DNA of 64,000 nt from a virus (taxonomy: Duplodnaviria > Caudoviricetes), in IMG/VR virus record IMGVR_UViG_3300020190_000004. One strand, written 5' to 3'. Made by a program: the position numbers and the translations under genes. The notes under the pieces are model-generated. The model was not told where the DNA came from. It was given only the letters and a program-made list of their open reading frames with translations, and ran no database searches. The first letter of the stretch is position 1; every line of letters starts with the position of its first letter. Positions 2,438 to 59,017 of the stretch are shown piece by piece.

Positions 2438-2782
2438 TTAATCTAATTCAGGTAAAAAACCAAGGCTATTCATGCAATCTTGATCAAAGTATGCGCGTTG
2501 ATTTTTGGGATATTCATGAGTAAAAACTACTTTCTCGTCTTCAATAATTTCCAAGATGTAATTACCTTCACCAGTAGTTCCTACTTTAATCACCCACTCA
2601 TTCCCGTTTCTTCTTTCGTCTGCATAGTAAACTTGAACAAAATCAAAACGATTATCATCGTCTTCATCGGTAAGCTCTTCATTAAACTCGAAAGTTACAC
2701 CACCTAATTGTAGTGATTTTTGAATCTTAAAGTCCAAGTGCCCTTCATTCAAAAAGTTCTCAAATGTTTTAATGTGTTTCAT
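2438..2782 (-). CDS. Small protein with CTS-like N-terminal tag (putative internal head protein)
   Basis: Starts MKHIKTFENFLNE. Confidence 0.65.
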   Translation of the reverse strand: MKHIKTFENFLNEGHLDFKIQKSLQLGGVTFEFNEELTDEDDDNRFDFVQVYYADERRNGNEWVIKVGTTGEGNYILEIIEDEKVVFTHEYPKNQRAYFDQDCMNSLGFLPELD

Positions 2783-2867
2783 ATTCAGCTTTCAGTTTTT
2801 TGAGAATAGCTTCATTTTTAAGAATTCTTTTTAAGTTCTTTGCCATAGTGCGCCGGTTGCGAGGCAT
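2769..2867 (-). CDS. Small basic peptide MPRNRRTMAKNLKRILKNEAILKKLKAEYETH (may extend to ATG 2904 by one frameshift)
   Basis: Manual translation; fills the intergenic gap and its end overlaps the next start. Confidence 0.3.
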   Translation of the reverse strand: MPRNRRTMAKNLKRILKNEAILKKLKAEYETH

Positions 2868-2909
2868 TCCCTGTTTTTCTTTTTTTGCTCTTGCCACTAC
2901 TCATAAGGG

Positions 2910-4334
2910 TTATTTTTTCTTGGATTCTTTATTCTTTTCTCTATTCTTTTCGTCTTGTGCAGCATCTTGAAATGTATTACCACCCGAATTCCCTGTTTCG
3001 ATTGGTTGACCTTCAACAATCATAGTTTCTTTGGAAATTTTTGCAAGTTTTCCAATTTCGCCGTTTCGAATAACACCGCGGTTAACTTGACAGTTAATGA
3101 TGTTTTTCTTGTTTTCTATAAAACAGTCATTAAGCTTATTATCAATATGAAGCTCGCATTCAGAAATTTTACTAAAATCAACGGTATTTCCTTTTACAAA
3201 ATTACCGTCTTGTATCCTTGAGTTCTTAATTTTACAATCATAAAACCATGCTCTATGAATAACACCTTCAAGTTCGCAGTTAATAAATTCCATGTCAGTT
3301 AACTTGCAGTTACGCAACTTGGTGTCCTTTAATTGAAAACGTCCAATTTCTTTGTCATAATTAAAGGCGCCTTTCTTCATCTTTCCTGTAATTATAAGAT
3401 CAAATAGTTTTTCTCGAATGTTAACCCACATAGATTCCAGTACTTGTGGGTCTGCGTTCATATCAACCCCAACTTCTATTCCAGGAAACGCTTTTTGGAA
3501 AACTTCGTATTTAACAAAAGATTTATACACCTTTTCGTCAATGGCCGTCATTTTTTTAAAGTCCGCCTTTTCTTTGTCAGTAAATCCTTCAAAGTTTAAC
3601 GTATCATATAAATGAAGAATAAAGTAATCGACCAAGTCAAGAATTTTCTTTGTCGTCTTTTCATAATCTTTACCACCAAGGTAACGATATTCCAGATAAC
3701 CCTTTTCCGCCTTCAAGAAGTTAACTCCATAGTACTTTTCGTCAGCTGGAAGAGTTAGGGTGGCGCGACTAAATTCTTCTAATGTAGGAGAATAAAAAAG
3801 TACTCTGTTAGGTCTTAGAGACTTAATACTTCTAGCATAAACACTCCCTTCTCTTTTAGGAAAGATGTCATATATCTTTTTCTCATCAAAAGATAAGATA
3901 AACTTAGGTATGTTGATGTTAGGAATAGTAAAACGGGTAGGGACCGCATTTTCATCAATACTAATGTTTACGTGTATAGAACACCTTTCGTTAGTATAGC
4001 CATTACTGCTGATCCATTCAAAGACTTTAATTAAGACGTTGCGAGCATCTTTGTATTTCATCGGTCCAGTGACTAACTCACACATACTCTTACCACCTGA
4101 ATAATCAGGTTCTAGTTTAAATATGTCAGCAGTAGGAGCTACTGGAGAGTGATAAAGAGGCTTAGGTTCTGTTATAGAACTTAATGCAAGAGGCACTACT
4201 ACCCTTCTTTTTACAAATTTTGCGATGTCTTTAGCGGTTTCAAACACATCCATCGAGCTGTAAAACTCAAACTCGAATCCGCAACGGGCGCTGTCAAGAA
4301 CCTCAGTCTTAGTGTAATTCTTTTTAACCTTCAT
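2910..4334 (-). CDS. Putative amidoligase (COOH-NH2 ligase, Amidoligase_2-like) with C-terminal beta-helix-like repeats
   Basis: Motifs GFEFEF, ELVTGP, CSIHVNIS, KYYGVNF, EYRYLGG; likely start MKVKK at 4334. Confidence 0.7.
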   Translation of the reverse strand: MKVKKNYTKTEVLDSARCGFEFEFYSSMDVFETAKDIAKFVKRRVVVPLALSSITEPKPLYHSPVAPTADIFKLEPDYSGGKSMCELVTGPMKYKDARNVLIKVFEWISSNGYTNERCSIHVNISIDENAVPTRFTIPNINIPKFILSFDEKKIYDIFPKREGSVYARSIKSLRPNRVLFYSPTLEEFSRATLTLPADEKYYGVNFLKAEKGYLEYRYLGGKDYEKTTKKILDLVDYFILHLYDTLNFEGFTDKEKADFKKMTAIDEKVYKSFVKYEVFQKAFPGIEVGVDMNADPQVLESMWVNIREKLFDLIITGKMKKGAFNYDKEIGRFQLKDTKLRNCKLTDMEFINCELEGVIHRAWFYDCKIKNSRIQDGNFVKGNTVDFSKISECELHIDNKLNDCFIENKKNIINCQVNRGVIRNGEIGKLAKISKETMIVEGQPIETGNSGGNTFQDAAQDEKNREKNKESKKK

Positions 4335-5520
4335 TTGGCAATGATAAGAAAATTTTGTCGTTGTGAACTCTATCAATCGAGACCATTACTGTGTCTCCAA
4401 CCGTAAAGTTCTTTTTCTTTGTTTTGATTTCTTTTTGAGAAATCATTCCGCAGATATCTTTTTGTAACTTAACCAATGTACCAAACGGCTGAATTGAAAT
4501 AACTTCACCACCCCGAATAGTTCCAAGATTTTTTTCTTTAAACTCTTCAAGTTCTAATCTTTTAGCCGTGGGATCTTCATCTGTAAGAATAATTTTCTTG
4601 TCAGGTGTGATCTCTTTGATCCAAAAAGTTAATTCATTTCCAGCCGTGATCTCACGGTCAGTAAACTTCTTCTTCATCTCTGGAGTCATTTTGCTTGTGT
4701 GCAATAGACCCGTGAATATCTCATCAAACTCAACGAATACACCGTACTTTGCAACTCCAGTAACGCTTCCGGTATACATTTTGTCGGTCTCTAACTCACT
4801 AATTTTGCTAGGCAATATCATACTCACATATTTCTTATACGAGAATACAAATGTATTACTTTCGCGTAAATAATCTTCTACAACGACAGGAATCTCTCTT
4901 CCTATCATACTGTCAAAATCTCTTACGATATTTGTAGCAGCGAGTGACCCTGGCAAAAATCCTTTGATACCCGCAACAAATATGATAAAACCGCCTCCAT
5001 TCTTTTCAAGAATCTTACCAATGTAAGCCGATGTTGGTTTAGCAATTTGCTTGACAAATTCACTTTTAATCTTTTCTTCCATCCCTCTTGAAATTGAAAC
5101 TTTAACGTAAGGTTCAACTTGCTCAACGGTGGCTTGTATTTCCTGGTTTAAGAAGTAGTTTTGCCCTTCTTCGGTACTCAAATACTCTGAAAAACCTTCA
5201 GAATCCATGTTAATTGTGTTTAAGTAGCCTTTTTCTCTTTTAAGATCTACTATCCCATCAATCAGCCCGCCTAGTATTACATGCACCTCATTCTTATTAG
5301 CTGCTCTAACAGCAATGATTCTCCTTGTCTCACCTTCTCTAAGTTCTTTACTTAAGATTTCTTGTCCAAGAATCATTTTCTCATAAAGATCTAGTGCGTA
5401 TGGTTCTAAGCAGTAATTCTTAGCACCATACTTTGCTAAGATTTCAGGATTAGGTTTTCTGCGTTTACCAGATTCGAGTCTGTCCCAATCAATTTCTTGT
5501 TTGTTTTTTTGTGTATTCAT
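4324..5520 (-). CDS. rpsA: Ribosomal protein S1 homolog (multiple S1 domains)
   Basis: S1 repeats GGFIIFVAGIKGFLPGS, GSVTGVAKYGVFVEFDEIFTGLLHTSKM, GEVISIQPFGTLVKLQKDICGMI. Confidence 0.8.
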   Translation of the reverse strand: MNTQKNKQEIDWDRLESGKRRKPNPEILAKYGAKNYCLEPYALDLYEKMILGQEILSKELREGETRRIIAVRAANKNEVHVILGGLIDGIVDLKREKGYLNTINMDSEGFSEYLSTEEGQNYFLNQEIQATVEQVEPYVKVSISRGMEEKIKSEFVKQIAKPTSAYIGKILEKNGGGFIIFVAGIKGFLPGSLAATNIVRDFDSMIGREIPVVVEDYLRESNTFVFSYKKYVSMILPSKISELETDKMYTGSVTGVAKYGVFVEFDEIFTGLLHTSKMTPEMKKKFTDREITAGNELTFWIKEITPDKKIILTDEDPTAKRLELEEFKEKNLGTIRGGEVISIQPFGTLVKLQKDICGMISQKEIKTKKKNFTVGDTVMVSIDRVHNDKIFLSLPNEG

Positions 5521-5534
5521 TATTTTAGATTTTT

Positions 5535-5543
5535 GTATATATC
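5535..5543 (-). promoter_or_regulatory. Late-type promoter GATATATAC upstream of the rpS1 homolog
   Basis: Exact motif 15 nt upstream of ATG in a short intergenic gap. Confidence 0.65.
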
Positions 5544-5554
5544 ATACAAGTTCT

Positions 5555-8500
5555 TTACGCAAAGTATGGTGCCACATAGCTATTTCCTAACAAAGCGTTC
5601 CTTTGTGCTGTGGCGACAAGCTGGTCAAGCCAGATGATGAATGGAAAGTTTTTTGTCGAAAGCCCTTCCCATGCAGGTAAGACTTCTTTTGGTTTCGATG
5701 GATGAATTTTTGTAAGCGCAATTCGAGTTGCTGGAAAAGCACACCCAAGAAGTATTACAGGAAAAGGTATGTTTTCGCTTGTAAACGAAGCAGCACCTTT
5801 TATGATAGGATCTACATAATCTTTTATTAACTTGGGGTTAAGTTCAAAAAATGGCCCTTCTGGTTTAGGAGGATCAGGTGTAACGAATTGAGATATGATT
5901 GATAAAAATGGAGATTTAAGATTAGAAGCAGCGTCTATAAGTGTACCTAAAACATCCAGCGCTGGAAATGCTATCGTCTCTAGCAAAGAAAACAAAAATG
6001 CTTTTATGTCCGGTCCTGATATTTGTTCAAGACTCACGCTAAACAATAGCTTTATGATATTCAAAATAACGGCAATCTTTGATGCAACAGCAGAAGTACC
6101 TAAGTTTTTGCATATTTGATTTATGTAACAGTTCGCAAACTCGTTAAAAGAAGATAAGAAATCTTTTAACGCCTTTTTTATGATAAAAAGAATTTTTGTC
6201 CCAGGGATTTCTATTTGTATAGGAAGACCAACTTTAGGCAATCTTACGGTAAATGATGCGATGAAGTTTTTTAAAGCTATCTTAATCTCTTTAAGAAGAG
6301 AAACACTTATATCGATAGGGATAACAAGAGGGGGTATTAAGTCCAAAAACAAGTTAATTCCAAGCTGAAATAATTCTTCAGCAGAAGGCAGCTGAACAGC
6401 AAAGTCAATAATTTTACTAAGTGCTTTTAGTATCAAGTCATCATTAAGACCCAGAATAATGTTGGGTATATTCTTAATTGCTTCCAAAGCAAGAGATATT
6501 CCAGGGTTAAGAGGGGGGATTGAAACGTTAGTATAACACGGCTCGGGCAAAGATACCAAGATATCTGCAGATGAAACAAAACCCAATTTCTCAGGGGTTA
6601 TATCTTTAATTGCATCTTCTATCTGCTTCTTTAAAAGATCTTTAACTAAATCTAATCTCTTCTTAGCCGCTTCTTCAGGACTTCCTAAATCTACTTCAGC
6701 TTCAAGTGCGTCAATCTTTGTGTCGAACTCAGAAAAGATTTCTATCGATGCAGCATACGATGTATTGGCTCTAACCAGTTCCTTTAATTTAGCAGTAACA
6801 TCAAAAGGGTTGTTTATACTTAATCCTATTTCTTTAAGAAGCTTCTTTGCTTTATCCGGAGCTGTCTTAAGAATACTCAACAAAGAATTAATAGTGTCAA
6901 GCATAGCAATCGCACTGGGAAGCTCCATCATCATGCCCTTTGAGTCACGCGGTATTTTTATTCCTGGTACATCAAGTCCATCCAAACTTGCAATTAAAAG
7001 CTCTATAATAGTTTTTAGTGACAACTTAATTGCTTCTACATTATCGCAGTTAGTAAACTTTAAAGCATTCTTAATTAAGTCTTTCATCCGCAAAGCAGTG
7101 GGGGAAAATCCTCCAAAGACAGGTGGGTCAGGTATAACTAGTTCATCTACAGATTTCTTAATCTTACCTTTTATGCTATCAATGACAGTTTTCGATGAAT
7201 CTGGTTTGTTTACATCAAGTCTTGTGGATCCTGTAAATAGGTTACCCGGAAATTGTGTAAGATTAATTTTTAATGTAGTATCAAGACCTGGTAATAACTC
7301 AAGAAGACTTTTTTCGTCAAACTCGGTAATTCCCAAAGAAGGATCCGGAATCTTACTAGGTCCTGTGAGAGTAACAGCAAAAATAGTTTGTTGCTTTTCA
7401 TCAATGAACATTACATAGACATTAGGAATGATCCCCCCTGCTGCGCCAATCCAAAACACAAAAGTACCAACTGATGTATGCAAAGTTAAGAGATGAACCC
7501 ACAAGAATGGCAGGGGAATGCTTATGACAGGGTCGGGTATTCCAAGTGCAAGTGAAGGGATAGGGGCCGGAACGGGTATCTGTAAAGCTACTGGGTAATA
7601 TCTAAATAATCTTTTATTTAAGAACATCAAGTCAGGTATCGGCATAAGACTTACTATCTGCATAATCTTGGTATATTCACGCCAATAACAATTCTTTTTG
7701 TAATCGGGGCAGCCATTGGATCCTTTAAGACCCAGAGGATCACTTCCTAAAAGATCTTTGCATTTCTTTTCAGTACCAGGTGAACTATCACCGCCTCCTG
7801 CCTTTTCTGCACATGCAGTAATAGCTTTTTTCTGCTCTTCTATACAAGTATTGCATTCTTCTATCGTCTTAACGAAAAAGTTTAGCTCTTTTTGTAATTT
7901 ATTAAGAAATCTGTTTGAAATGTCTAATTCATTTATAAACTTGTCAGGATTAAAAGATTCAAAATTTGATACGCTAATACTAGAAAAATCGGTAGAACTT
8001 ATCATATCATAAAAAGATAGCTTTGCTTCTAACCTTGCATAAAACCTAATTTTTTTTATGTAAGGCTTGGCATCAGAGCTAGTAAGTATTTGATTCGCTA
8101 AAGAGTTTATTTTACCTCTCGTAAGTTCTTCTAAATTTTCAATAAATGGAATAGCAATCGCTAGATCTACGTTGCAATTCTTTACAGAAGTTGGTACTTC
8201 TTGAACTATGGTAGAACCGTCGCCTGACTTGATTTCTACTGTAGACTTTGCACCTAAAGCATTTCCCTGATCATCATATTGTGGTTTAGGTCCTGTGTAT
8301 CCTTGTTCTTTCCATGTAAACAGGTCATCTATACGGTTAGGAGAATAGTATTTTCTCCAAAGTCCGTTTTCTAAAAAACCAGTCCTTGGTAGTCCCTCTC
8401 CTGGTACAAATGTATAGTTATCAACTTTAAGATAACCGTCAAAAATTGTGTCTTGCGCGCCATTTAAAGATTGCGCTAGCAAAAAGTCTAGCCTGCCTTT

Positions 8501-10141: not shown

Positions 10142-10974
10142 TATGAACTTACTTTAACGTTTTTAGATGTAGACAACTGTTCAAACGCAGAAGCCTGCGA
10201 ACTATAAACTCCAGGGGTTGAAGGCAACTTGCCGTCAACCGCAGTAGCAAGAGATTTTAGAAATGCCCATAGCGGTTCAGCAAGAACGGCTGAATATGTA
10301 GGAGCTGGCCCAAGTTTTGTAACTGCTGAGCCATTCATGGCAACTTCTGTAGATTCTGCTCTGATTAGAGAGTTAGAAGCTAGATTGATGCTTGAATTAC
10401 ATGTGATGTTTATGTTAGGTCCTACAAGTTCAATTATGCTTTCACTACCCGAATGCTCTATAGTTATACTTGTATCAGGGTTTATCGTTATATGTGAATC
10501 TTTTAAAGATATCTCCATACCGATATCTGGTGTGTAGTATACTTTTAACTCTTCATCTTGGTCCCAGCCAAACACATGACTGTTTAGATATGAAGCGCTG
10601 ATAGCAGCCTGCATATCAGTGTTTATGTTTATGATAGAAGAATACTCGGGTGAATAAATGTTACCATCACAAAAATTTACTGATACGATTGCTCCTATCT
10701 TAGGCACACTTAAATTACCAAACCCTCCTTCACCACCCGCAAAGAAATTGTTATTTTTAGGATACGCCCACGGAATGTCTTCTTTTTTCAATTCTGTTCT
10801 TTTAGTCTGCCCGGGTATAGGTTTATTGTTTTTGTCATATACAGGTTCTTCAAAGTCAAAGACTCCAAACACCATGATTCTACAACGCCCTTCACGATTT
10901 GGGTCATCATTATCAACTACTCGTCCTACAAATGAACCTTGGGATAAATATCTTTTTTCAAGAGTACTTGCCAT
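10141..10974 (-). CDS. Baseplate central spike, gp5/VgrG-like N-terminal OB fold, no lysozyme domain
   Basis: FVGRVVDNDDPNREGRCRIMVFG...IPWAYP...VPKIGAIVSVNFCDGNIYSPEY. Confidence 0.85.
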   Translation of the reverse strand: MASTLEKRYLSQGSFVGRVVDNDDPNREGRCRIMVFGVFDFEEPVYDKNNKPIPGQTKRTELKKEDIPWAYPKNNNFFAGGEGGFGNLSVPKIGAIVSVNFCDGNIYSPEYSSIININTDMQAAISASYLNSHVFGWDQDEELKVYYTPDIGMEISLKDSHITINPDTSITIEHSGSESIIELVGPNINITCNSSINLASNSLIRAESTEVAMNGSAVTKLGPAPTYSAVLAEPLWAFLKSLATAVDGKLPSTPGVYSSQASAFEQLSTSKNVKVSS

Positions 10975-11005
10975 TTTTAGTTTTTAGCTTTAATAGTTTT
11001 ATATT

Positions 11006-13051: not shown

Positions 13052-13055
13052 ATTA

Positions 13056-13064
13056 GTATATATT
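13056..13064 (-). promoter_or_regulatory. Late-type promoter variant AATATATAC
   Basis: Fills the 13-nt gap upstream of ATG 13051. Confidence 0.55.
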
Positions 13065-17592: not shown

Positions 17593-17636
17593 GTATATAT
17601 CACCTTCATATACAATTCTTAACCATGAATATATAG
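17593..17636. promoter_or_regulatory. Divergent pair of late-type promoters (GATATATAC minus 17593-17601; AATATATAG plus 17628-17636)
   Basis: Two motifs back to back in the 81-nt gap between divergent operons. Confidence 0.65.
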
Positions 17637-17655: not shown

Positions 17656-17877
17656 ATGAATAGAAGAGTATTAAATTTTTCCGACTTTTTGGTAGAAGCT
17701 GATGAATTGGAAAAAGATCTTGTTAAGAAGAATCTTCGTGCTGAAGCTGGCGGTGAACAAGAAGAAGAAAAAGAAGAAGAAATCGACGCAGCAGAAGTTA
17801 GCGATGACGACGATGACGACGATGACGACGTCGCATCCGATGATTCCGTTGCTTCAGACGGTGGAGCAGATATCTAA
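17656..17877 (+). CDS. Small acidic protein with CTS-like tag
   Basis: MNRRVLNFSDFLVE, then E- and D-rich tracts. Confidence 0.6.
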   Translation: MNRRVLNFSDFLVEADELEKDLVKKNLRAEAGGEQEEEKEEEIDAAEVSDDDDDDDDDVASDDSVASDGGADI

Positions 17878-17892: not shown

Positions 17893-18234
17893 ATGAAGCA
17901 CATACACACATTTGAAAACTTCTTAAATGAAGCCCTGGCTTTTGATACATCTAAACTAAAGAATATCAACTTTATCCTTCCTCCTTTTGATAAGCCGTAC
18001 CAAGATGAATTCCAGATCTCCTTTGATAAAGGTGTAGATAAAGATGCAATTGAAAAAGCAATTAAAAGTGAAAAGGGCGCAGCCCGTGTAAAGTACGAGT
18101 GGACTACAGACCCGCACGGCTCGGAAGTTCTACTGCTTAAACCTGGAAAAGATAACTCAGGTCTAACTTTCGTTTTCAGCGCAGTCGATGATTTCTATGG
18201 TTCACACGGTGCAAGCATGGGATGGGCACTATAA
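17893..18234 (+). CDS. CTS-like tagged small protein
   Basis: MKHIHTFENFLNE. Confidence 0.7.
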   Translation: MKHIHTFENFLNEALAFDTSKLKNINFILPPFDKPYQDEFQISFDKGVDKDAIEKAIKSEKGAARVKYEWTTDPHGSEVLLLKPGKDNSGLTFVFSAVDDFYGSHGASMGWAL

Positions 18235-18248: not shown

Positions 18249-18560
18249 ATGAAACACCTAAAAACCTTTGAAAACTTCCTCAATGAGGCAAACGGCCTTG
18301 CATACTGGTCTGACTACGCGGAAGACACTTCTGGACAAGCAGAAGCCTGGATGAGCGAGCCTTGCACAGATATGTCACACGTTATTAAGTGTGTTGACGA
18401 TTCTATTGCTGCATGGAACAAAGCAGCAGAAGCAGACGGCGGGGACCGTGTGTCTAAACCATCAGAAAAACATATCGGTGATTTGGCAATCCGTTATTGG
18501 AAACAGTTTAAGACTATTAACGGAAACATCATCACTGCAATGATTGCGCAAGAGTCTTGA
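18249..18560 (+). CDS. CTS-like tagged small protein
   Basis: Likely start 18249: MKHLKTFENFLNE. Confidence 0.7.
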   Translation: MKHLKTFENFLNEANGLAYWSDYAEDTSGQAEAWMSEPCTDMSHVIKCVDDSIAAWNKAAEADGGDRVSKPSEKHIGDLAIRYWKQFKTINGNIITAMIAQES

Positions 18561-18585: not shown

Positions 18586-18885
18586 ATGAAAAACATTAAA
18601 ACGTTTGAAGACTTTCTTGGTGATTCTACCAAAACCAATGAAGAAGCAGAAGGCAAAATGTATAAAGTATCTCTTGATACAATCATAAAGAGCGCTGAAG
18701 AAATCAAATCCCTTGTTACCGACGACCAAGATCTTGAGGCCTGGGTGCAAGACAAGATAACTATCGCTGAACACAACATGGAAGCTATTCTTGGTTATAT
18801 GAAAGGCGAAGGCGGCAAGAAGAAAATTGAAGTACCAGTTCAAGGAGATATGAAAACTGGCGGAATGTTAAAGGACGAAAACTAA
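18586..18885 (+). CDS. CTS-like tagged protein with a helical domain recurrent in T4-like phages
   Basis: Likely start 18586: MKNIKTFEDFLGD; contains DLEAWVQDKITIAEHNM. Confidence 0.65.
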   Translation: MKNIKTFEDFLGDSTKTNEEAEGKMYKVSLDTIIKSAEEIKSLVTDDQDLEAWVQDKITIAEHNMEAILGYMKGEGGKKKIEVPVQGDMKTGGMLKDEN

Positions 18886-19949
18886 TGCACGTTTTACCGT
18901 TCGATAAGTTCAGCAAAGAAAAAGGCGTCTTTAAGATAGCTTTTCTTGGAGACATAATGTGTGAAGACTCCGCACTTATGTCAGTTGTCAATGATGAACC
19001 ATTCCAATTCATAAAGCCGTTTCTGTATTCCACTGATTATGTTGTAGGAAATCTTGAAACAACTTTTAGTGGAGAAACGAGCAGTTATCCTAAATTTTCA
19101 ACGAATGATCTGTTAGCGGATGACCTAAGTAGTTTTGTGAATCTTGTGTTTACTGCGAACAACCACTGCTATGATTTTGGAACAAAAGGAGTTGAAAGGA
19201 CTATTGAAATACTGGATGAATTTGGTATAAATTACGTAGGAACTAATCCTTTACCAAAAATTCGCAGAACATTCGATGCTGACTTAAAAGGTCATAAATT
19301 ATCTTTTCTAAACTATACACAATTTATTAATGAAACGAAGAAAGACCCAATTTACAAAGGAATTAATACCCCAGAAACACCAACAAACCTCATCAATTTT
19401 TACTCTAAAACCCAAGCTCAGGAAACGATTAATCTGGCGAAGGAGAGATCTGAACTTGTCTTTGTTGGAGTCCATCAATCATCTAGAAAAAGTAATGCAA
19501 GAGAACTCGAACGAACAAGCACCAGCGAGCAACGAGAGTTCTTGGCTTCCGTAAGTAATTTTGGCGCTGACGTAGTTATTGGTGGACATCCGCATTACTT
19601 TCAAGGTGCAGAAATTCTTGAAGAGGGAAAGATCATTGTCTATTCACTTGGAAATTTCTTTTCTACCATGTGGAACCCTCCTCATTATACTACTAACTGC
19701 GGGTGCATTATGATAATGTCTTGTGATGGGTTTTCAAATATAAGATATACCTTCTTACCGATAGCAACCGTTAAGAACGAAAGTAATAACCACTACTATG
19801 TTATTCCTATCGCTACGCTTGAAGGTGGTAACTATGATTGGGTTTCTGTTAAACAGCGAGATGAACTTCTTGAAGAACTGGAAAGAATTCGTAAAACTTT
19901 AAGAGATTGTTCTCTTATCGAGGAAGAGCTTCCGATCCACTTTTTCTAA
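18885..19949 (+). CDS. CapA / PGA_cap family metallophosphoesterase
   Basis: GDIM, GNLE, ANNHCYDFG, IGGHPH, YSLGNF motifs. Confidence 0.85.
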   Translation: MHVLPFDKFSKEKGVFKIAFLGDIMCEDSALMSVVNDEPFQFIKPFLYSTDYVVGNLETTFSGETSSYPKFSTNDLLADDLSSFVNLVFTANNHCYDFGTKGVERTIEILDEFGINYVGTNPLPKIRRTFDADLKGHKLSFLNYTQFINETKKDPIYKGINTPETPTNLINFYSKTQAQETINLAKERSELVFVGVHQSSRKSNARELERTSTSEQREFLASVSNFGADVVIGGHPHYFQGAEILEEGKIIVYSLGNFFSTMWNPPHYTTNCGCIMIMSCDGFSNIRYTFLPIATVKNESNNHYYVIPIATLEGGNYDWVSVKQRDELLEELERIRKTLRDCSLIEEELPIHFF

Positions 19950-21826: not shown

Positions 21827-22156
21827 CTAAAATTCGATGAAATGTTTGTATTCTTCATGGTATTCTTGCATCCAGAGCTCTGGAAGTCCTTGGTGGATCC
21901 ATCCGATATATTCATTCCTAAAGCCTTGAAGAAATTTTTGAATATGCCCTTCATAATCATTGTCCGCTAAGTGAAGTATGTCTATTGTTGATATCTTAAA
22001 TGTATGATAAGTTCCTTGCACTCGCCAGTACATGTAAAGTATACGGTTTATGTGTTCATACCCATACTCTATGACAAGCGGTGATGTCCATTTAGGAACT
22101 TCAATGTCAAAAGTCCCTGTACCAGCTAATGTACTGAAATCTTTATGAAACGGCAT
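21827..22156 (-). CDS. Hypothetical protein
   Basis: 109-aa ORF, operon packing. Confidence 0.5.
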   Translation of the reverse strand: MPFHKDFSTLAGTGTFDIEVPKWTSPLVIEYGYEHINRILYMYWRVQGTYHTFKISTIDILHLADNDYEGHIQKFLQGFRNEYIGWIHQGLPELWMQEYHEEYKHFIEF

Positions 22157-22544: not shown

Positions 22545-22874
22545 TTATATACTAGATTCAAAAACGATAGAATGTTGATAACTAGGTTTATCTGATGCTA
22601 CATTGATTGTAACATTCCCTTTATGTTTAAGGATTATTTTAAGATAATCTACGACTTGCTTAGGTTTTCTAGGAAATCCATTGGCTCCTCTTAATCCAGC
22701 ACCATACAACCAACTTGGAAGATTGTCTGCCGATATGTTAGGATCCTTAATGAATTCTTGAATATCTTTATCGGTGTATGTATGTTGTTTATTACCGTAA
22801 GTGATAACGGTAATTTTCTTTCCTTCATTTAAATTCTCATTTAAGAATTCTTCGAAAAGTTTAATGTATGCCAT
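22545..22874 (-). CDS. CTS-like tagged small protein
   Basis: MAYIKLFEEFLNENLNE; GATATATAG upstream. Confidence 0.7.
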   Translation of the reverse strand: MAYIKLFEEFLNENLNEGKKITVITYGNKQHTYTDKDIQEFIKDPNISADNLPSWLYGAGLRGANGFPRKPKQVVDYLKIILKHKGNVTINVASDKPSYQHSIVFESSI

Positions 22875-23830: not shown

Positions 23831-24724
23831 TTAGTAATTTATTTTTTTGTAATCTGCAATGTCTTTTAGTTCGGCTGTAGGTAATACTTCAATTTTCTTT
23901 AGTATTACGTTTCTTACGTTTGCTAAATCATTAATTTCTTTTTCTGAAAGACCTGCAATAGTATAAGTTTCGCCAACAGAAAAACCAAGAGTAGAAAGCT
24001 TTTTTGCACTGTCGAGAGATTCCCAATACTTGCTATCTAATGGCTGATTTGTATTAAATGTTGCAACACAATTATCCCAAAGAGTTTTTGCGTCTATTGG
24101 GGAAGTTTTTTCAATTACGCAGCTTTCGCCACTAGTATAAACAGCAGCAATTGAATACTTTCCTGACATAGCGTCAGGTGGAGTGTTTTCTTTAAGTTTC
24201 TTAAATTGTTCAGGCTTGTCTTTATCCATGGTAGAAGATAAGCCATTTGAAAAAAGAATACTTAATATCTGATTAATTTTAATTGCAGACATACTTAATA
24301 CACCAGAAAAACCAGCCTTTTTAGAAGCTTTTACTGATATCTTTTCATCTCCTTTACTTACGTCAGAAAAAATCGAATCAGCGCCTGCTGCTCCAACAGC
24401 CGTAGGATTAGTTTGTTGCCCGCCTAATACTTTTTCAACTATATGTTCAGCTATTGTTGAAGTTCTAATTCCACCTACTGCTGTATCTTTAGCGTTTGTT
24501 CCAAGATTTGTAACAAACGTATGAAAAAAGTTTGCTTCATTCAAAAGAGGCCCGTCATCAGCAGCAAACTTCTTATCTTTCAAGATATCACTATAAGAAA
24601 TTGTTGCCCCAGCCTTAGCACCGCTTGATCCTATATACTGTGTTAAGAACTGAAAAATGTTTTGTGCATTAACAGATTCATTAACAGATTCATTCAAGAA
24701 AGATTCGTAATCTAGAAGACCCAT
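23831..24724 (-). CDS. CTS-like tagged protein with possible PD-(D/E)xK nuclease fold
   Basis: MGLLDYESFLNESVNE; IAEHIVEKVL...FSDVSKGDEKISVKAS. Confidence 0.45.
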   Translation of the reverse strand: MGLLDYESFLNESVNESVNAQNIFQFLTQYIGSSGAKAGATISYSDILKDKKFAADDGPLLNEANFFHTFVTNLGTNAKDTAVGGIRTSTIAEHIVEKVLGGQQTNPTAVGAAGADSIFSDVSKGDEKISVKASKKAGFSGVLSMSAIKINQILSILFSNGLSSTMDKDKPEQFKKLKENTPPDAMSGKYSIAAVYTSGESCVIEKTSPIDAKTLWDNCVATFNTNQPLDSKYWESLDSAKKLSTLGFSVGETYTIAGLSEKEINDLANVRNVILKKIEVLPTAELKDIADYKKINY

Positions 24725-25052: not shown

Positions 25053-25514
25053 TCACTTGTAGTCTGGGGACTTGACTTTCTTGCCTTTATCTGGTCCACC
25101 TTCTCGGGGTATCATGCCTTGCGCGATCAATGAGACTCTTATACCGAATGGTATGTCTTTACCGTCTTCGTATTCCTTTTGATACTTCTTAAGAGTATCT
25201 TCATCATAAGGAGATTCTTTTTCGTCAAGTAAGTCTTCTCGACCAAGCTGCTTGTACACCTCTTTACGAACTTTTTCCATTTTCTCTGCGTATTCAGGAT
25301 CATCATTGCGGTTAAAGACGACCTGCTGTGTAAGACTACCGCTAATCTTTTTAAGATCTTTTTTACGAGTCTTAATTAGCCAAGCAGCAAGATCCTCAAT
25401 GCCTAAATCTCTAAAACGTCCTTCTGCATCAGGTGCATCGCTATCTTTCCATTCAGGGGCGCCTGCAGGTTTCTTTTCATACAGCCACTGTTCAAAAAGT
25501 TTTAAGTGTTTCAT
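25053..25514 (-). CDS. CTS-like tagged protein
   Basis: MKHLKLFEQWLYE. Confidence 0.6.
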   Translation of the reverse strand: MKHLKLFEQWLYEKKPAGAPEWKDSDAPDAEGRFRDLGIEDLAAWLIKTRKKDLKKISGSLTQQVVFNRNDDPEYAEKMEKVRKEVYKQLGREDLLDEKESPYDEDTLKKYQKEYEDGKDIPFGIRVSLIAQGMIPREGGPDKGKKVKSPDYK

Positions 25515-25532: not shown

Positions 25533-26339
25533 TTACAATTCTTTGTTTACGTCGGTGCTGTATGGTTTTGTCAGATCAATCTCACCATTAGCTAACATTC
25601 GTTTTACTTTCTCAACTTCGTCCGGCCCAATTACAGGCATTTCTACTCGTGCTGGGGCCCCTGGCATGATTTGCTTAGGCAACGCGTCAGCGTTTTTCAT
25701 CATAATCTCTTTACCCTTTTCGTAGTCCCCACCTGCTCCTGGCATATTACTCAAGCTTTCTTTAACTTGCTCAGGTGTAATAGGAAACTTTCCTTGAATT
25801 CCGTTCTCTAAAAAGTTATCCAAAAGATTTCCAATGTTTCTTCCGGTAAAATCTTTAATGTCTCCGTCTCCGTAGTTACCACCGCGATTAAACATACCAA
25901 CGGTAATTGTGTTTAATGCAGATACTAAGGATACTCCAGGTAAGTCAATTTGTGTTGCTTCAACTTTTCCGCTTGGATCGCAAAGAAATGTAGCAGCCCA
26001 ACGATGATGACCATCCATAATAAAATTGTCTTTAGAAACGATTGAACCTAAATCACCACCAATTTTTGCAGGTTTTGTGTTTAGCATTGTTCCAATAGCC
26101 ATTCCAATAGCCTTTTCCGCGATAATCTCTGTTTGGGCAGCTTGAAGATTTTTAACAGGAACGCTTACTTTCTTCCCAGCAACTGCATCATCTCTCTTAT
26201 CACCGTCTTTACCACCTCTGCCAATTGAGGCATCAGCAGCTTTCTTGTTAACTTTACTTAAAGGAATAACATCACCTCTTCCATGAATCTCCATCGAATC
26301 TTCTAGGATGTAACTTTCAAATGTTTTAACGTATTTCAT
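25533..26339 (-). CDS. CTS-like tagged ParB/Sulfiredoxin-domain protein
   Basis: MKYVKTFESYILE; IVSKDNFIMDGHHRWAA. Confidence 0.7.
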   Translation of the reverse strand: MKYVKTFESYILEDSMEIHGRGDVIPLSKVNKKAADASIGRGGKDGDKRDDAVAGKKVSVPVKNLQAAQTEIIAEKAIGMAIGTMLNTKPAKIGGDLGSIVSKDNFIMDGHHRWAATFLCDPSGKVEATQIDLPGVSLVSALNTITVGMFNRGGNYGDGDIKDFTGRNIGNLLDNFLENGIQGKFPITPEQVKESLSNMPGAGGDYEKGKEIMMKNADALPKQIMPGAPARVEMPVIGPDEVEKVKRMLANGEIDLTKPYSTDVNKEL

Positions 26340-28316: not shown

Positions 28317-28508
28317 TTAATACCTTTGGACAGTAGAACGATTGATTTGATCACTGCCGTCTTTCTCTTGGTCGTATTCTTTGCCAGGTTCATTTGTGTC
28401 TATGGAAAAGACTTCTTTTCCATGTGCGTACTTTTTGCCTTTTTTCATAACATGCTTGTCATGCAAGTCACCTATGAATTCTTCAAATGTTTTTATAGGT
28501 TTTTTCAT
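28317..28508 (-). CDS. CTS-like tagged microprotein
   Basis: MKKPIKTFEEFIGDL. Confidence 0.65.
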   Translation of the reverse strand: MKKPIKTFEEFIGDLHDKHVMKKGKKYAHGKEVFSIDTNEPGKEYDQEKDGSDQINRSTVQRY

Positions 28509-28696
28509 ATTCCTCCAAACGGATAAGCAGCAGTAGCTGTCTCTTCATCGTCACCGTAGTAAGTAGGATTTTGCGTATCAGGGTCTAAGAACAGCTCGTC
28601 ACCGTCTTTCTCTTCTTCGCGATCAGCGAGTTTTCTGAGTTTTCTTGTCTCCAAGTCGCCGATAAAATCTTCAAACGTAGGTACTCGTTTTTTCAT
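28505..28696 (-). CDS. CTS-like tagged microprotein
   Basis: MKKRVPTFEDFIGDL. Confidence 0.65.
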   Translation of the reverse strand: MKKRVPTFEDFIGDLETRKLRKLADREEEKDGDELFLDPDTQNPTYYGDDEETATAAYPFGGI

Positions 28697-31241: not shown

Positions 31242-31496
31242 TTACTTGTGAAAATAGTTCTTAGCATCAACGACAAGAACATCAATGGTGTCTCCAACTT
31301 CTACGCTGGTTCTGCTTGTGAGTTTGTAACCGCAGTCAGTGGAGATTGTGTAATACTTACCATCAGGTATAAAAGAGTACTTGTCTTTAGCAGTCACCTC
31401 AGTAACTACGCAACGATGAATAACGCCTTCGGGTTGTTTTACTGAGCATGAAACTAAAGCAGCAACAGCAAAAATGGATAGAAATAGTTTTCTCAT
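31242..31496 (-). CDS. Small lipoprotein
   Basis: MRKLFLSIFAVAALVS-C lipobox. Confidence 0.65.
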   Translation of the reverse strand: MRKLFLSIFAVAALVSCSVKQPEGVIHRCVVTEVTAKDKYSFIPDGKYYTISTDCGYKLTSRTSVEVGDTIDVLVVDAKNYFHK

Positions 31497-43710: not shown

Positions 43711-43711
43711 G

Positions 43712-47446: not shown

Positions 47447-48032
47447 TTGTTTCGCTCATTCTTTTGAGCAGCTGACGCCCTCTTTGCAATTTATACCAAA
47501 CATCTTGTTCTTTACATCCAATTTCTTCAGCAATTTCTGCATGCGAAGAATCTTTAAAGTACTTCATTGTAATTGCTTTAGCAAGGTCAGTAGGAAGACG
47601 ATTAATTAAAGTCTTTACCAGCTGTGAAGTTCTCTCACGATCCACATTGGTGTCAAAGTTATGTGTGTCAGGTTTAGCAACAGCTTCTCGTTGATTGTCC
47701 TCAAGAGAATATGTTTCTACCCTCTTCTTCTGCTTAGGAATAGAGTTTACATAGTTATGAAGACACGCAACCATCCAGGTAAAGAGCTTTGACTTTTCAG
47801 GTTCATACTGATTAAGTTTTAGAAAAGCGTTTCCCAAAACTATCATGGTGATATCTTCAAGATCTTCAGGATCTCGGTAAGGCAAACGTCTTTTTGCTGC
47901 GGTATAGAGAATAGGTTTATACTTCTGAAGCAGAATGTTATAGGCTTTTTGGTTTCCGCTAATAGCTTCTTTAACTAATTCTTTATCCTCTTCGTGCGTA
48001 GTATATGCAACGCTTTTTCTCATCTTTGCCAT
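47433..48032 (-). CDS. ECF-type RNA polymerase sigma factor
   Basis: Region 2 (GNQKAYNILLQKY...AFLKLNQYEPEKSKLFTWM) and region 4 (INRLP...SHAEIAEEIG...LQRGRQLL). Confidence 0.9.
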   Translation of the reverse strand: MAKMRKSVAYTTHEEDKELVKEAISGNQKAYNILLQKYKPILYTAAKRRLPYRDPEDLEDITMIVLGNAFLKLNQYEPEKSKLFTWMVACLHNYVNSIPKQKKRVETYSLEDNQREAVAKPDTHNFDTNVDRERTSQLVKTLINRLPTDLAKAITMKYFKDSSHAEIAEEIGCKEQDVWYKLQRGRQLLKRMSETNELF

Positions 48033-48050
48033 TAAACCTTTATTTAAGAC

Positions 48051-48079
48051 TTATATACTTAAAATGTCATTTAGTTCTT
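48051..48079 (-). promoter_or_regulatory. Class-II promoter AAGAACT-N12-AAGTATATAA upstream of the ECF sigma gene
   Basis: Recurrent bipartite motif. Confidence 0.6.
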
Positions 48080-48080
48080 A

Positions 48081-48105
48081 AAAGAAAAAGGCCCAGGACC
48101 CTTTT
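48081..48105 (-). terminator. Probable intrinsic terminator downstream of TROVE
   Basis: AAAAGGGTC-CTG-GGCCTTTTT then T-rich. Confidence 0.5.
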
Positions 48106-48196
48106 GATTATCCCCAACCACGACCACTCCAGATCATGGCTTTTATTCTTTGTTCTTCAAGCCATTGCAGATACTTGACTATTCTTCTTAGCGTTT

Positions 48197-55796: not shown

Positions 55797-55799
55797 ATC

Positions 55800-56702
55800 T
55801 TATTGTTTTATTTTGTTTATCGTTTTTTGTACCGGGGAAGTCTCCATAGAAATATCACGAGACTTCCAGTAAGATTTTCCATAAGAGATAAAAATCTCTT
55901 CGCCTGGTTCAATATCCCGCAGAGCATAAAAACTGATTGTCTTTTTCTCTGTATTTATTTTCCAGTCAGCCATAGGTTGATTTCTATGATTATACAAAGA
56001 AGCATTCCCAAACGCAATAGCGTATAGAGAGTCGTCAAGTTTAAACACATAGTCCATAACAACAGTACCCGTTATCTGATCTTTTGGAATTACAAGAAGA
56101 GGAGCAACTTCAAAGCACTCACCATTCTTGATGTAATCTACACAGAAAACTCCAGCAGCATCTACACTAGATTTTCCAACGCCTATCTTGTCCCAGACTT
56201 TTACCGAAGCCGATCTTCGAAGTTTGCCTTGCGGTTCACTGATGTAAACTACTGAATTAACAGGTTCTTTCTTAGTATCACCGCCAAGGGATTCAAACGT
56301 CTTTTGAATCCTTCGAGTAATGTTATTCTTTTTTAATACTTCTTTAACTTGTTCGTCAAATTGACTGAATATCTGTAGCAGATCAGCGTTAAGAGTGTCT
56401 TGTCTATCTTCTATGATTTTTTCAATGTTTTTCATAGCAGATTGCTTAGATTCTTCAGTAGAATCCGCAAGATCATTTATGATGCTCATCTGCGTTACCA
56501 ACTCTTCATCAGCGGTAAACTTGTATGTAGTACCGCCTTTCGAGTAGAGTTCCATTACAACAGAACCTGTTGAGTCAGGGTTTCTTAAGGCATCAAAACT
56601 GATTGTTGGCGGCTTAAGACCTCCTCCGGTGAAGTCGAATTTAATCTCGCCTTCACGCTCAATCAGAGCTTCTGTAAGATATTCATAATAAGTCTTAATC
56701 AT
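55800..56702 (-). CDS. SET-domain protein-lysine methyltransferase with CTS-like tag
   Basis: MIKTYYEYLTE; SSVDAAGVFC, GNASLYNHRNQPM, ALRDIEPGEEIFISYG. Confidence 0.85.
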   Translation of the reverse strand: MIKTYYEYLTEALIEREGEIKFDFTGGGLKPPTISFDALRNPDSTGSVVMELYSKGGTTYKFTADEELVTQMSIINDLADSTEESKQSAMKNIEKIIEDRQDTLNADLLQIFSQFDEQVKEVLKKNNITRRIQKTFESLGGDTKKEPVNSVVYISEPQGKLRRSASVKVWDKIGVGKSSVDAAGVFCVDYIKNGECFEVAPLLVIPKDQITGTVVMDYVFKLDDSLYAIAFGNASLYNHRNQPMADWKINTEKKTISFYALRDIEPGEEIFISYGKSYWKSRDISMETSPVQKTINKIKQ

Positions 56703-59017
56703 TATTTCTTATTAGCCATGAAGTCTTCAAACTTCATTATTTTCCTTGGTGAAGCAGGTGCATCTTCTTCAGTTTTCTTGATGATCACTTCTTCTTCTTC
56801 CTCTTCCTTATCTTCGGGTTTGTCTTCAACCTTGTCCTCAGGTTTGTCTTCAACCTTGTCCTCGGGTTTGTCTTCAACCTTGTCCTCAGGTTTGTCTTCA
56901 ACCTTGTCTTCAGGTTTATCACTCGCCTCAGGTTTGTCTTCAACCTTGTCTTCGGGTTTGTCTTCAACCTTGTCCTCAGGTTTATCACTCGCCTCAGGTT
57001 TGTCTTCATCCTTGTCTTCAGGTTTGTCACTCGCCTCAGGTTTGTCTTCAACCTTGTCCTCAGGTTTGTCTTCAGGTTTATCACTCGCCTCAGGTTTGTC
57101 TTCAACCTTGTCTTCAGGTTTGTCACTCGCCTCAGGTTTGTCTTCAACCTTGTCCTCAGGTTTGTCTTCTTTTTTCTTTTCTTTATCGTCAGTAGTTTCA
57201 TCTTCTAAATCATCAAGAATATCATCATCTTTAGATTCAGTTACTTTACTGACTTTCATATTCATAAAATCTGAAAATTTCATAATGGTTTTGTTTGTTG
57301 TATTATTTATATTATTGATTTCTTCCTCAATAGAAGCCCAGAAACTTTCTGATTCTTCTCCTTCGCCAAGATTCTTACCACTTTTGATTTTATCGATAAG
57401 TTCCTTATAGCGTTTAATTTTGTCTTCATCACCTTTTTCTTCAGCCTTTGCAAGACCAGCTTCTGCTTTAGCAATTTTTTCTTTTTGCTTATCGCCAAGT
57501 TCTTCGGAATCTTCACCCTCTGGTTTTTCTTCCTTTGTTGCTGCCTTTAGATCTCCTCTTGCAACTTCTACAGCAGAACTAGCATCTTTTATACCTTCAT
57601 CATCACCTTCCGCTTCAGCCTTTTTTAATTGTTGCAATTTAATTTTTAACTCTATGGCCAAAACATCTGGGTGTTTTGAAGAATTTAGCTCTTCGCTCTT
57701 AGACTTTTTTTCGTCCTTTAATTTTTCAATTTCAGCATTTATAGCTTCAACCTCTTCGGCGTTAACTTCTTTCTTGTCAGATTCTTCTTCGCCGCCAGAC
57801 TTTGCTGTAGCTATTTTTTGTTTAACTTCGTTAGCCTTTAAGATAGGGCTGTATTGTTCTAGGTTATAATCTTTTAATTCAGGCTTTAAAGTATTAGATG
57901 TATAATACGTTTTCTTACCTTCTTCATTGCTAGGCACTTCTTCAATAGCGTTAGGATCAGCACCGCCTAATTCTAATACTTGTTTTGTTGCTGTTTTTCC
58001 TTTTACTTTATCCCACAAGGCTTTCTTTGCTTCAAAGAAAGCTGTATAAGCATCAATGTATTTGTCTGTTGCCGCATCTAATGTATCAAGAAGCCCTTTT
58101 CTATCTTCTGCTTTATCATCAGAAATCGCCATGATGTGAGAATAAACTTGACCTGGTGTTTTTGAATCACTGTCAGATTCAAGTATAGGATATTCCAACA
58201 AACCGTATTCAAGCATTAGCGTATTATAAGAAAAGTCAGAATCATCTCCTTCGATAAGCTTGTCAGCTTGAACATAAATGGTAGCTAGTTCGCCTCTTAC
58301 TTGTGCTAAAGGTCTACCTGTTTTTTGGATAGCTTCAATTTCGTTTTCACAAGAAAGCTTGTTAAGAATTTCAGCGTCTTCTTGATCGCTTTCTCCTTCT
58401 TGTTCAGCTTCTCCCAATGCTTCTTCTGCTTGTCTAGTGTCTTCCTCAGCTTGAGAAGCTTGTTCCGCCATTGCTTCAGCTCTTTCTTGTTTCCCTTCAG
58501 CATTAAGAACTTTTTCAAGTTTACTAAAACCTTCCTGTTTTGCCTTTTGGTCAGCCAATTTCATTTTCTTATTTATGATAGCATCTAAGTCAGGCACTGC
58601 TCTAAGTGCTTCTTTTTCTTCACCAATCTCATCTTTAAGATTGATTAGTGCATCACCAAGTTGCTGTTTGATTGTGTTTTGGCTATTCTTGAGTTTATCA
58701 ATTTCTGTTGCAATTTTTTCAAGCTTATCTTCCAAACCAGGTTTTCCGCTATCCCTTAAAGCCGCAATTTGTTTTTTCTTAGGTAAAATTTTTGCACGTA
58801 TAGTAGCGTCAATGCTATTGCTGTCTGCCTTTATTGCAAGTTGCTCATAATTACCTAATTTTGCGTAAGCTTTTCCGAATGCAACATACCCTCTAAGTTT
58901 TGCAAGAACTTCTTTGAAATTAAACTCTTCATTTAATTTCCCCAGTTCGATAAAAGATTGACTTTCAGATACGACATATTTCTTATTTGCCACATAGTCT
59001 GCAAATTTCATATTCAC
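56702..59017 (-). CDS. 771-aa acidic helical protein with C-terminal KPE repeats (putative prohead core/internal protein)
   Basis: MNMKFADY..., internal MKFSDF, terminal MKFEDF; directly downstream of the major capsid gene with a late promoter. Confidence 0.6.
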   Translation of the reverse strand: MNMKFADYVANKKYVVSESQSFIELGKLNEEFNFKEVLAKLRGYVAFGKAYAKLGNYEQLAIKADSNSIDATIRAKILPKKKQIAALRDSGKPGLEDKLEKIATEIDKLKNSQNTIKQQLGDALINLKDEIGEEKEALRAVPDLDAIINKKMKLADQKAKQEGFSKLEKVLNAEGKQERAEAMAEQASQAEEDTRQAEEALGEAEQEGESDQEDAEILNKLSCENEIEAIQKTGRPLAQVRGELATIYVQADKLIEGDDSDFSYNTLMLEYGLLEYPILESDSDSKTPGQVYSHIMAISDDKAEDRKGLLDTLDAATDKYIDAYTAFFEAKKALWDKVKGKTATKQVLELGGADPNAIEEVPSNEEGKKTYYTSNTLKPELKDYNLEQYSPILKANEVKQKIATAKSGGEEESDKKEVNAEEVEAINAEIEKLKDEKKSKSEELNSSKHPDVLAIELKIKLQQLKKAEAEGDDEGIKDASSAVEVARGDLKAATKEEKPEGEDSEELGDKQKEKIAKAEAGLAKAEEKGDEDKIKRYKELIDKIKSGKNLGEGEESESFWASIEEEINNINNTTNKTIMKFSDFMNMKVSKVTESKDDDILDDLEDETTDDKEKKKEDKPEDKVEDKPEASDKPEDKVEDKPEASDKPEDKPEDKVEDKPEASDKPEDKDEDKPEASDKPEDKVEDKPEDKVEDKPEASDKPEDKVEDKPEDKVEDKPEDKVEDKPEDKVEDKPEDKEEEEEEVIIKKTEEDAPASPRKIMKFEDFMANKK
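56808..57169 (-). repeat. Tandem array of 24-nt (KPEDKVED) and 18-nt (KPEASD) units
   Basis: 9 x KPEDKVED, 1 x KPEDKDED, 5 x KPEASD plus two partial units. Confidence 0.95.

Follow-up and report, generated by a model that had tools for sequence, protein, structure and literature searches.

Why should phage proteins with unrelated bodies begin with the same short peptide? This question is raised by a 64-kb stretch of phage DNA (IMG/VR record IMGVR_UViG_3300020190_000004; 64,000 nucleotides, analysed at full length and called the window below), in which 13 genes open with one 13-residue N-terminal peptide, hereafter the tag. The initial annotation of the window had proposed that about 15 of its proteins share such a tag and had compared it with the capsid-targeting sequence (CTS) that directs internal proteins into the head of phage T4. 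According to our analyses, the tag is likely to be this lineage's version of the T4 CTS, and the proteins that bear it would be loaded into the head as cargo, cut there and injected. This reading is built on sequence comparisons with T4, with related phages and with the head genes of the window itself.

A conserved N-terminal peptide on unrelated proteins

All 15 coordinates in the initial annotation proved to be starts of open reading frames (ORFs) with the quoted N-termini. Thirteen are strong members of the tagged set, but the ORF at 59017 carries only a variant of the tag and that at 18885 is not a member. Aligned on their core, the 13 tags follow the pattern x-T-[FY]-E-x-[FYW]-[LI]-x-[E/D/K] behind a lead of M-K-x-[ILV]-K or shorter, and a typical full tag reads M-K-x-[ILV]-K-T-F-E-x-F-[LI]-x-[E/D]. 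The residues [FY], [FYW] and [LI] are each present in 13 of 13 tags, and the last position is Glu in nine, Asp in three and Lys in one. The expected cleavage-type ending (L/I)xE was found in nine of the 13 tags, with LNE the commonest, while three tags end in [LI]-G-D and one in I-G-K.

A position-specific scoring matrix (PSSM) of nine positions was scanned over about 20,000 residues of window proteins. The 13 tags scored 17-27 bits, always at residues 2-6, and the next best match anywhere reached 14.3 bits. The profile thus separates 13 tagged N-termini out of 77 from none among about 19,500 internal positions (Fisher's test, p = 2e-32), and neither the 115 decoy ORFs (maximum 7.3 bits) nor the 361 internal-Met pseudo-N-termini held a match of 12 bits or more. 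The looser motif given at first, M-x(1-6)-[FY]-x-x-[FYW], does find the members but is permissive, matching 16 of the 361 internal Mets. Three ORFs that match only this motif were rejected as members, namely those at 21960 and 36268 and the one at 18885, a PGA_cap enzyme with a low PSSM score. The start at 59017 was also rejected in favour of a better ATG at 59011, from which the protein begins with the variant tag MKFADYVANKK.

The bodies behind the tags are unrelated, as had been claimed: an all-against-all blastp of the tag-stripped sequences gave nothing significant, the only matches being low-complexity ones to an acidic 769-aa protein of the window. In Pfam and PHROGs only two of the 13 bodies found a match, one to a SET domain and one to phrog_2859; the other 11 gave none. 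Apart from the SET protein, the cargo bodies are 50-285 residues long and mostly acidic (pI 4.0-5.7), and the small tagged ORFans (63-114 aa) are often tandemly arrayed. The 153-aa cargo protein was modelled with AlphaFold from its single sequence; the model, of moderate confidence, has the tag as a helix (residues 2-12), a flexible 10-residue linker (13-22) and a helical body.

Occurrence of the tag in related phages and metagenomes

In the 10-kb flanks of the capsid genes of relatives, 25 of 27 PSSM matches were N-terminal. A 16-position profile of the window tags (A1) was searched over whole IMG/VR contigs at E<0.01, giving about 22, 17, 9 and 8 matches in contigs of 238, 143, 218 and 374 kb, respectively; nearly all start from model position 1-2 at the Met, lie on the strand of the capsid gene and often form dense arrays. 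The suggestion that the cargo set exceeds that of T4 is borne out by these counts, with 13-14 tagged genes in the 64 kb of the window and about 8-22 per whole relative against T4's three internal proteins and its Alt.

A metagenome scan with a degenerate DNA pattern for K-T-F-E-x-F-L-N-E yielded at least 119 stretches. At least 66 of the 124 exact core matches listed are N-terminal, and among the matches listed 54 unique complete tagged ORFs fall into 48 body families without detectable similarity. Two kinds of hit were discarded as chance matches to the pattern: TLIDCFKTFESFFNE*, a recurrent non-coding or other-frame element in human gut contigs (L036, L041, L044, L088 and others) that is unrelated to the tag, and the motif VEIVSGKTFEEFLNERIFEPLD, internal to a protein family that is likewise unrelated. 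A PSSM scan of contig L031, to about 17 kb before the window, found no tags, and the gene table of contig L032, to about 26 kb before the window, holds large structural and replication genes only.

The more distant Sphingomonas phage PAU carries a variant tag, MK[TS][IL][ST]xLYExKLNE, on about 16 genes grouped about those for its portal, protease, scaffold and capsid. Among them are gp142 and gp154, both annotated as 'internal capsid protein', and gp152, annotated as 'scaffolding' (GenBank JQ362498); the capsid propeptide of PAU contains KLNE. A literature search found no published proteomics for this phage.

Likeness to the T4 capsid-targeting sequence

According to the T4 record, ipII and ipIII do both start with MKTYQEFIAE. 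On the window PSSM this sequence scores 12.9 bits, against a maximum of 10.6 bits among 39,344 background 9-mers from a 34-kb segment of T4. Two of the window tags, both by the capsid gene, are near-copies with similar spacing from the Met: MIKTYYEYLTE and MKTFGEFIGK (the gene starting at 55796), in which six of ten residues are those of T4 and the spacing is equal. Mullaney and Black are said to have described in 1996 the T4 capsid targeting sequence of IPII, IPIII, IPI and Alt, for which PMC9026906 and PMC3012670 are reviews. The first 10 residues of IPIII are sufficient for incorporation, and mutagenesis of the T4 CTS has singled out residues 4 and 7 as the main ones for targeting and residues 8 and 10 for processing; an Asp in position 10 prevents processing and leaves targeting intact (PMC9026906). 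Residues 4, 7, 8 and 10 of the T4 CTS are Y, F, I and E, and they correspond to the near-invariant positions of the tag.

The two peptides are alike as short N-terminal sequences on unrelated proteins, with aromatics three apart followed by an aliphatic residue and, in nine of the 13 window tags, x-Glu, and each is found alongside a protease of the gp21 type and a capsid protein of the Gp23 type that has a propeptide site of the same kind. However, the tag is usually three residues longer (M-K-x-[ILV]-K-T-F...), has Asp- and Lys-ending subclasses and precedes cargo that is mostly acidic. A conserved CTS on diverse internal proteins is regarded as an evolutionary device of T4-like phages, and the T-even internal-protein genes likewise join a conserved address to fast-changing injected proteins that probably act against host defence (PMC3012670, PMC9026906). 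Those genes are few per genome and belong to close enterobacterial relatives of T4, whereas the tagged genes form dense arrays in a distant jumbo-phage lineage.

Head genes of the window

The major capsid protein (59122..61047, minus strand; Gp23 family, Pfam 3e-42) aligns with T4 gp23 from residue 87. The xNE site attributed to it is present in its propeptide, where LNE stands at residues 4-6 and 41-43. In 16 relatives the motif HS-LNE, with G or S after it, does not vary. It holds the last Glu ahead of the part that can be aligned with mature T4 gp23, and we infer cleavage of the propeptide at LNE43.

Directly upstream of the capsid gene, a 619-aa ORF (61080..62939, minus strand) encodes a prohead protease fused to a scaffold. 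Its Peptidase_S77 domain (residues ~25-139, Pfam 3.8e-11) is 28% identical to T4 gp21, and its GELDHP and SSR motifs align with GELNHP and SSR of gp21, which we take to be the contexts of the catalytic His and Ser in proteases of this type. A coiled-coil region makes up the C-terminal two thirds of the ORF. Within it, residues ~266-405 consist of about ten tandem 14-residue units with the consensus GIQ-YAEYLAE-KMDQ and the core Y-x-x-[YH]-[LIV]-A-E; FTQFLGE occurs at residue 472. All 17 relatives examined have such repeats, in 5-14 units. Like the tag, the core of the unit has an aromatic residue, then x, x, an aromatic residue or His, an aliphatic residue, x and Glu, with a cleavage-type site at its end. 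The 619 residues contain 34 [LIVM]xE sites, 2.8 times the density of the proteome (19.7 per 1000 aa), as expected if the scaffold is diced and expelled in the manner of T4 gp22. Unlike the T4 maturation system, the window has no separate gp22-like scaffold gene, and gp22 is without 14-residue repeats; ORF-300 of Tenacibaculum phage PTm1 is annotated as a protease-scaffold fusion, as here.

When 17,256 background 7-mers were ranked by a PSSM made from the repeats of relatives only, the window tag cores fell within the top 0.1-2.6%, with YYEYLTE at the very top, and YQEFIAE of T4 within the top 0.05%. The resemblance between tag and scaffold repeat is real but moderate, and it could reflect either docking by mimicry or merely shared recognition by the protease.

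In addition, an acidic coiled-coil protein of 769 aa (56702..59011, minus strand) is encoded just downstream of the capsid gene, with the motif GATATATAC at 59047; on a contig of the sample discussed below it is called as 801 aa. It contains 27% D+E, with long KPEDKVED-type repeats near the C-terminus. A variant of the tag occurs in it three times, as MKFADYVANKK at the N-terminus, MKFSDFMNMK at residue ~577 and MKFEDFMANKK at the extreme C-terminus, with the consensus MKF-x-D-[FY]-[MV]-x-N-K-K and without the [LI]-x-E end. This protein is a candidate core component or internal protein.

Two side observations concern the scaffold. Where the protease domain meets the repeat scaffold there is a copy of GATATATAC (at 62352) together with a Met in frame (residue 210), and the scaffold half may also be made separately from this candidate nested late promoter. 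In the PTm1 fusion (L024:18222-19916) the repeat unit is another one, W-[IL]-K-x-D-[FY]-T-K-E-L-S-E-G-I-E-K.

A proposed model of cargo loading

From these comparisons we infer docking, cleavage, packaging and injection of the tagged proteins in the following way. The tagged proteins would be made late in infection alongside the head proteins. Each tag would form a short amphipathic helix, whose two aromatics (F at i and i+3) would dock onto the assembling prohead core, composed of the scaffold half of the fusion and probably the 769-aa acidic protein. After closure of the Gp23-type shell, the gp21-type protease would cut after the Glu of F-[LI]-x-E, and cuts of the same type would take the capsid propeptide off at LNE43 and dice the scaffold at its [LIV]-A-E repeats. 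The freed cargo would stay in the head and exit with the DNA at the next infection. Because Asp10 in the T4 CTS blocks processing and not targeting, the proteins with the three G-D tags and the G-K tag are predicted to be loaded and to stay uncut at that position.

A more specific proposal, on which we would not insist and which we regard as possible although doubtful, is that the tag imitates one scaffold unit. A tagged protein would then join the coiled-coil lattice (5-14 units, core YAEYLAE) and be freed by the same cut that dismantles the lattice. The repeat array would act as a multivalent receptor whose size sets the cargo capacity, Asp- and Lys-ending tags would mark an anchored or uncleaved class, and the whole could form a general 'signal peptide' system with dozens of effectors injected per genome. 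The proposal is advanced as a conjecture because the tags rank only in the top 0.1-2.6% of 7-mers on the repeat profile. If it is correct, PTm1 should carry a different tag, since its repeat unit differs. T4 internal proteins co-purify with the scaffold protein gp22 (PMC9026906), and the tag-like repeats suggest a testable answer to the question of what the T4 CTS binds.

Several observations weigh against a T4-like loading of the tagged proteins. The cargo bodies are mostly acidic, whereas T4 IPII and IPIII are basic, so the role of the cargo in the head may differ from that in T4. The Glu at P1 is absent from four of the 13 tags, and the late-promoter motif described below was deduced from position only. 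The 'internal capsid protein' of PAU is a label given by the depositors, for which no basis was found in the literature searched. No such tag was found near the capsid genes of PTm1, LR756500 and Lak-A2 with the window profile (no de novo tag search was made), and the tag is therefore not universal in the wider clade. A complex prediction for the first 40 residues of the protein starting at 18249 with scaffold residues 250-410 gave a score of 0.00 with low pLDDT, which is evidence neither way. The ORFs around the capsid gene of Lak-A2 are short and fragmented under translation table 11, as would be the case with an alternative genetic code, and this precluded a tag search there.

Alternative explanations

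The tag might address its proteins to some place other than the head, such as the lumen of the tail or baseplate, the membrane, a replication compartment or a chaperone. Several tagged genes do adjoin tail, baseplate and lysis genes instead of head genes, and the acidic bodies are unlike the internal proteins of T4. However, the likeness of the tag is specifically to the T4 head CTS, to the phage's own scaffold repeats and to the capsid propeptide site; the tag is not hydrophobic, hence no secretion signal; and in PAU the tagged genes cluster about those for portal, protease, scaffold and capsid, with an annotated scaffold and annotated internal capsid proteins among them. We consider another destination unlikely.

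It is slightly less probable still that the leader is only a propeptide recognised by the protease, whose removal would relieve an inhibitory helix and so activate or time the proteins without packaging them. Such a role would account for the nine tags that end in the cleavage-type site common to capsid and scaffold, and for the linker that the structural model places between tag and body. Yet conservation is strongest at the two aromatics, whose role in T4 is in targeting and not in cleavage, and the four tags without a cleavable Glu retain them; moreover, gp21-type proteases are active solely inside the prohead (PMC5694885).

We give equally little credence to the idea that the tagged genes are one fast-evolving paralogue family, in which nothing but the N-terminal helix can still be recognised, this helix serving, for example, oligomerisation and not being a portable address. 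Many members are indeed small tandem ORFans (63-114 aa), but the tagged proteins range from 63 to 300 aa, the SET body has untagged relatives in the same genome, and the 54 tagged ORFs listed from the metagenome scan represent 48 body families with no detectable similarity; even if the idea were true, a conserved functional N-terminal module would remain.

That the conservation belongs to the nucleic acid, as a translation-initiation enhancer (no Shine-Dalgarno sequences were seen in the window, the leaders are rich in A, and ATG AAA opens many of the tags) or a recombination cassette, is scarcely credible, because synonymous codons vary freely (identical residues share a codon in 90 of 146 cases, against 76 expected from codon usage), the DNA upstream differs from gene to gene, and the conserved units are specific residues with aromatic-for-aromatic and L/I swaps, all of which points to a tag conserved at the protein level and not to copied DNA.

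Comparison with other systems and significance

Several other systems resemble the proposed head-loading signal. The capsid protein of phage PAU is 30% identical to that of the window, and the N-terminal tag of PAU also ends in L-N-E and is clustered with head genes; however, the PAU tag (L-Y-E-x-K-L-N-E) is without the second aromatic, the protease and scaffold genes are separate, and the scaffold itself is tagged. In encapsulins, a short terminal cargo-loading peptide likewise directs diverse enzymes into a shell of the HK97 fold, but these peptides usually sit at the C-terminus, attach to the shell protein itself, undergo no cleavage and have no link to DNA delivery. We know of no scaffold with tag-like repeats in phiKZ or SPN3US. 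These two phages also have many head-internal proteins, a homologous protease that cuts after Glu, and propeptides for which a role in prohead targeting has been proposed (PMC5694885, PMC10052503). Their propeptides are mostly 80-130 residues long and protein-specific with another cleavage motif, whereas the tags described here are 10-14 residues long and shared (PMC5694885).

The CTS principle is already known from T4, and the present case extends a known mechanism. What is added is a much larger tagged set in a jumbo-phage lineage remote from T4, a position-by-position agreement with the mutational map of the T4 CTS, natural Asp- and Lys-ending subclasses, a protease-fused scaffold of tag-like cleavable repeats, and a tagged SET-domain enzyme. 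The Asp- and Lys-ending tags mirror the T4 laboratory mutant and suggest that phages tune the release of cargo against its retention. If the tag is a head-loading signal, a sequence profile would catalogue the proteins that uncultured jumbo phages deliver at infection into hosts of the Bacteroidota type, among which anti-restriction and other counter-defence proteins are to be expected. The cargo bodies are almost all ORFans, and the tag is the only handle on them. It could also serve as a protein-packaging tool beyond the phages of E. coli.

Tagged genes of the window

On the minus strand, the first tagged gene (2438..2782; 114 aa, MKHIKTFENFLNE) scores 27.4 bits and has an acidic body. Four tagged genes lie on the plus strand: 17656..17877 (73 aa, MNRRVLNFSDFLVE; 17.0 bits), with a body of 46% D+E and its own upstream AATATATAG motif; 17893..18234 (113 aa, MKHIHTFENFLNE; 26.6 bits); 18249..18560 (103 aa, MKHLKTFENFLNE; 27.4 bits), which has tagged homologues on metagenome contigs; and 18586..18885 (99 aa, MKNIKTFEDFLGD; 25.6 bits), in which Asp replaces the Glu at P1. 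For the 103-aa gene an ATG at 18222 was considered and rejected, the true start being 18249.

The remaining tagged genes are on the minus strand. The 109-aa protein of 22545..22874 (MAYIKLFEEFLNENLNE) has two LNE sites and a basic body, and GATATATAG lies 28 nt upstream of its gene. It is followed by 23831..24724 (297 aa, MGLLDYESFLNESVNE; 19.2 bits), 25053..25514 (153 aa, MKHLKLFEQWLYE) and 25533..26339 (268 aa, MKYVKTFESYILE), whose body matches phrog_2859, a family of unknown function. Atlas leads that pointed to a restriction-endonuclease-like protein for the gene at 24724 and to a ParB_N-like protein for that at 26339 were below the reliable range and are not relied on. Two 63-aa proteins are encoded at 28317..28508 (MKKPIKTFEEFIGD; 24.9 bits) and 28505..28696 (MKKRVPTFEDFIGD), both with Asp at P1, and GATATATAC lies 12 nt upstream of the latter. 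Near the head genes are 55512..55796 (94 aa, MKTFGEFIGK), with Lys at P1, and 55800..56702 (300 aa, MIKTYYEYLTE), which encodes the SET-domain protein. A fourteenth tagged gene (248 aa, MHNIKNYTQWLNE; minus strand) starts about 400 bases past the right end of the window, which contains its 3' part (63652..64000).

The claim that the cargo includes enzymes has one case in its favour, the SET protein, with the sole recognisable enzyme domain among the tagged bodies. In relatives, close homologues of this protein have a length of about 170 aa and start with tag variants of their own (MIDFRTFESLGN, MIENFKTFESLG, MKKFLEFINEADL), and a relic tag, KTFESLGGD, lies inside the window protein at residue ~134. 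The window gene is therefore a fusion in which a tagged upstream part of about 130 aa was joined to a tagged SET gene of about 170 aa, with the relic tag left behind. The same genome has two untagged SET paralogues of 140 and 142 aa on the opposite strand (L031:19438-20288), which adjoin PhoH and DNA polymerase exonuclease genes in a replication-type neighbourhood. If the tag loads heads, a SET-domain methyltransferase would be an unusual injected enzyme.

Candidate promoter motifs

The motif GATATATA[CG] occurs ten times on the gene strand and not once on the other strand. The copy at 62972..62979 (minus strand), upstream of the protease gene, is a candidate late promoter; the other copies on this strand have their 5' G at 62352, 59047, 55061, 28708, 25052, 22902, 17601, 5543 and 1382, and variants of the motif were found at 17628 (plus strand) and 13064 (minus strand). 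It lies 12-60 nt upstream of the genes for the protease, the 769-aa protein, tail and baseplate proteins and three tagged proteins. The other tagged genes lie downstream, inside units headed by the motif that they share with head, tail and baseplate genes, and both genes behind a host-type TTTG...TAATTTTATAC promoter are untagged. The statement that tagged genes follow late promoters therefore agrees with the arrangement of the motif, but the motif itself was identified here from its position alone and is not an established promoter; the arrangement fits late co-expression of the tagged genes with the structural genes. Promoter-like sequences of the host type, TTTG...GGTTAATTTTATAC[CT]ATAA, lie upstream of the untagged genes at 31496 and 51061 (minus strand).

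The phage and its relatives

The window has a G+C content of about 37%, with its genes almost all on the minus strand. It also encodes neck, baseplate and tail-like proteins, nucleotide-modification genes and a lysis block with a GH19 endolysin and SLT. A megablast search with the window found no close phage record. The nearest relatives of the capsid protein come from uncultured IMG/VR contigs (49-80% identity), some of them 218-374 kb long. Farther relatives include a metagenomic phage of 462 kb and the Lak megaphages of Prevotella (39%), as well as phages PTm1 and pT24 of Tenacibaculum and phage PAU of Sphingomonas (30%). Contigs with exact copies of the proteins of this phage were found in JGI metagenome sample 3300020196, apparently a freshwater sample, the longest being 238,241 bp. 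The phage is a jumbo phage of about 238 kb and a distant relative of T4. Its profile fits that of the freshwater, Flavobacteriia-associated 'moraphage'-type jumbo phages (PMC12619734), and the hosts of the lineage are probably Bacteroidota. Neither the 'moraphage' paper (PMC12619734) nor the jumbo-phage review mentions the N-terminal tag.

Several untagged genes of the window deserve mention. The gene at 48197-49822 (minus strand) encodes a Ro60/TROVE-like RNA-binding protein with 50% identity to gp540 of Bacillus phage G. Two tandem paralogues of 132 and 130 aa (54171-54569 and 54601-54993, minus strand; MGTLKTTLKVESTDLFPTPV and MATLKSTLKIESTDIFPTPV), with a GATATATAG motif ahead and no family match, may be small structural or decoration proteins. 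In the neck/baseplate late unit, directly upstream of a tagged gene, a pair of genes (2910-5520, minus strand) encodes a 474-aa Amidoligase_2/pentapeptide-like protein (weak Pfam match) and a 398-aa protein with S1 RNA-binding domains. The untagged PGA_cap (CapA-like) enzyme at 18885-19949 (plus strand) has the same orientation as the four plus-strand tagged genes.

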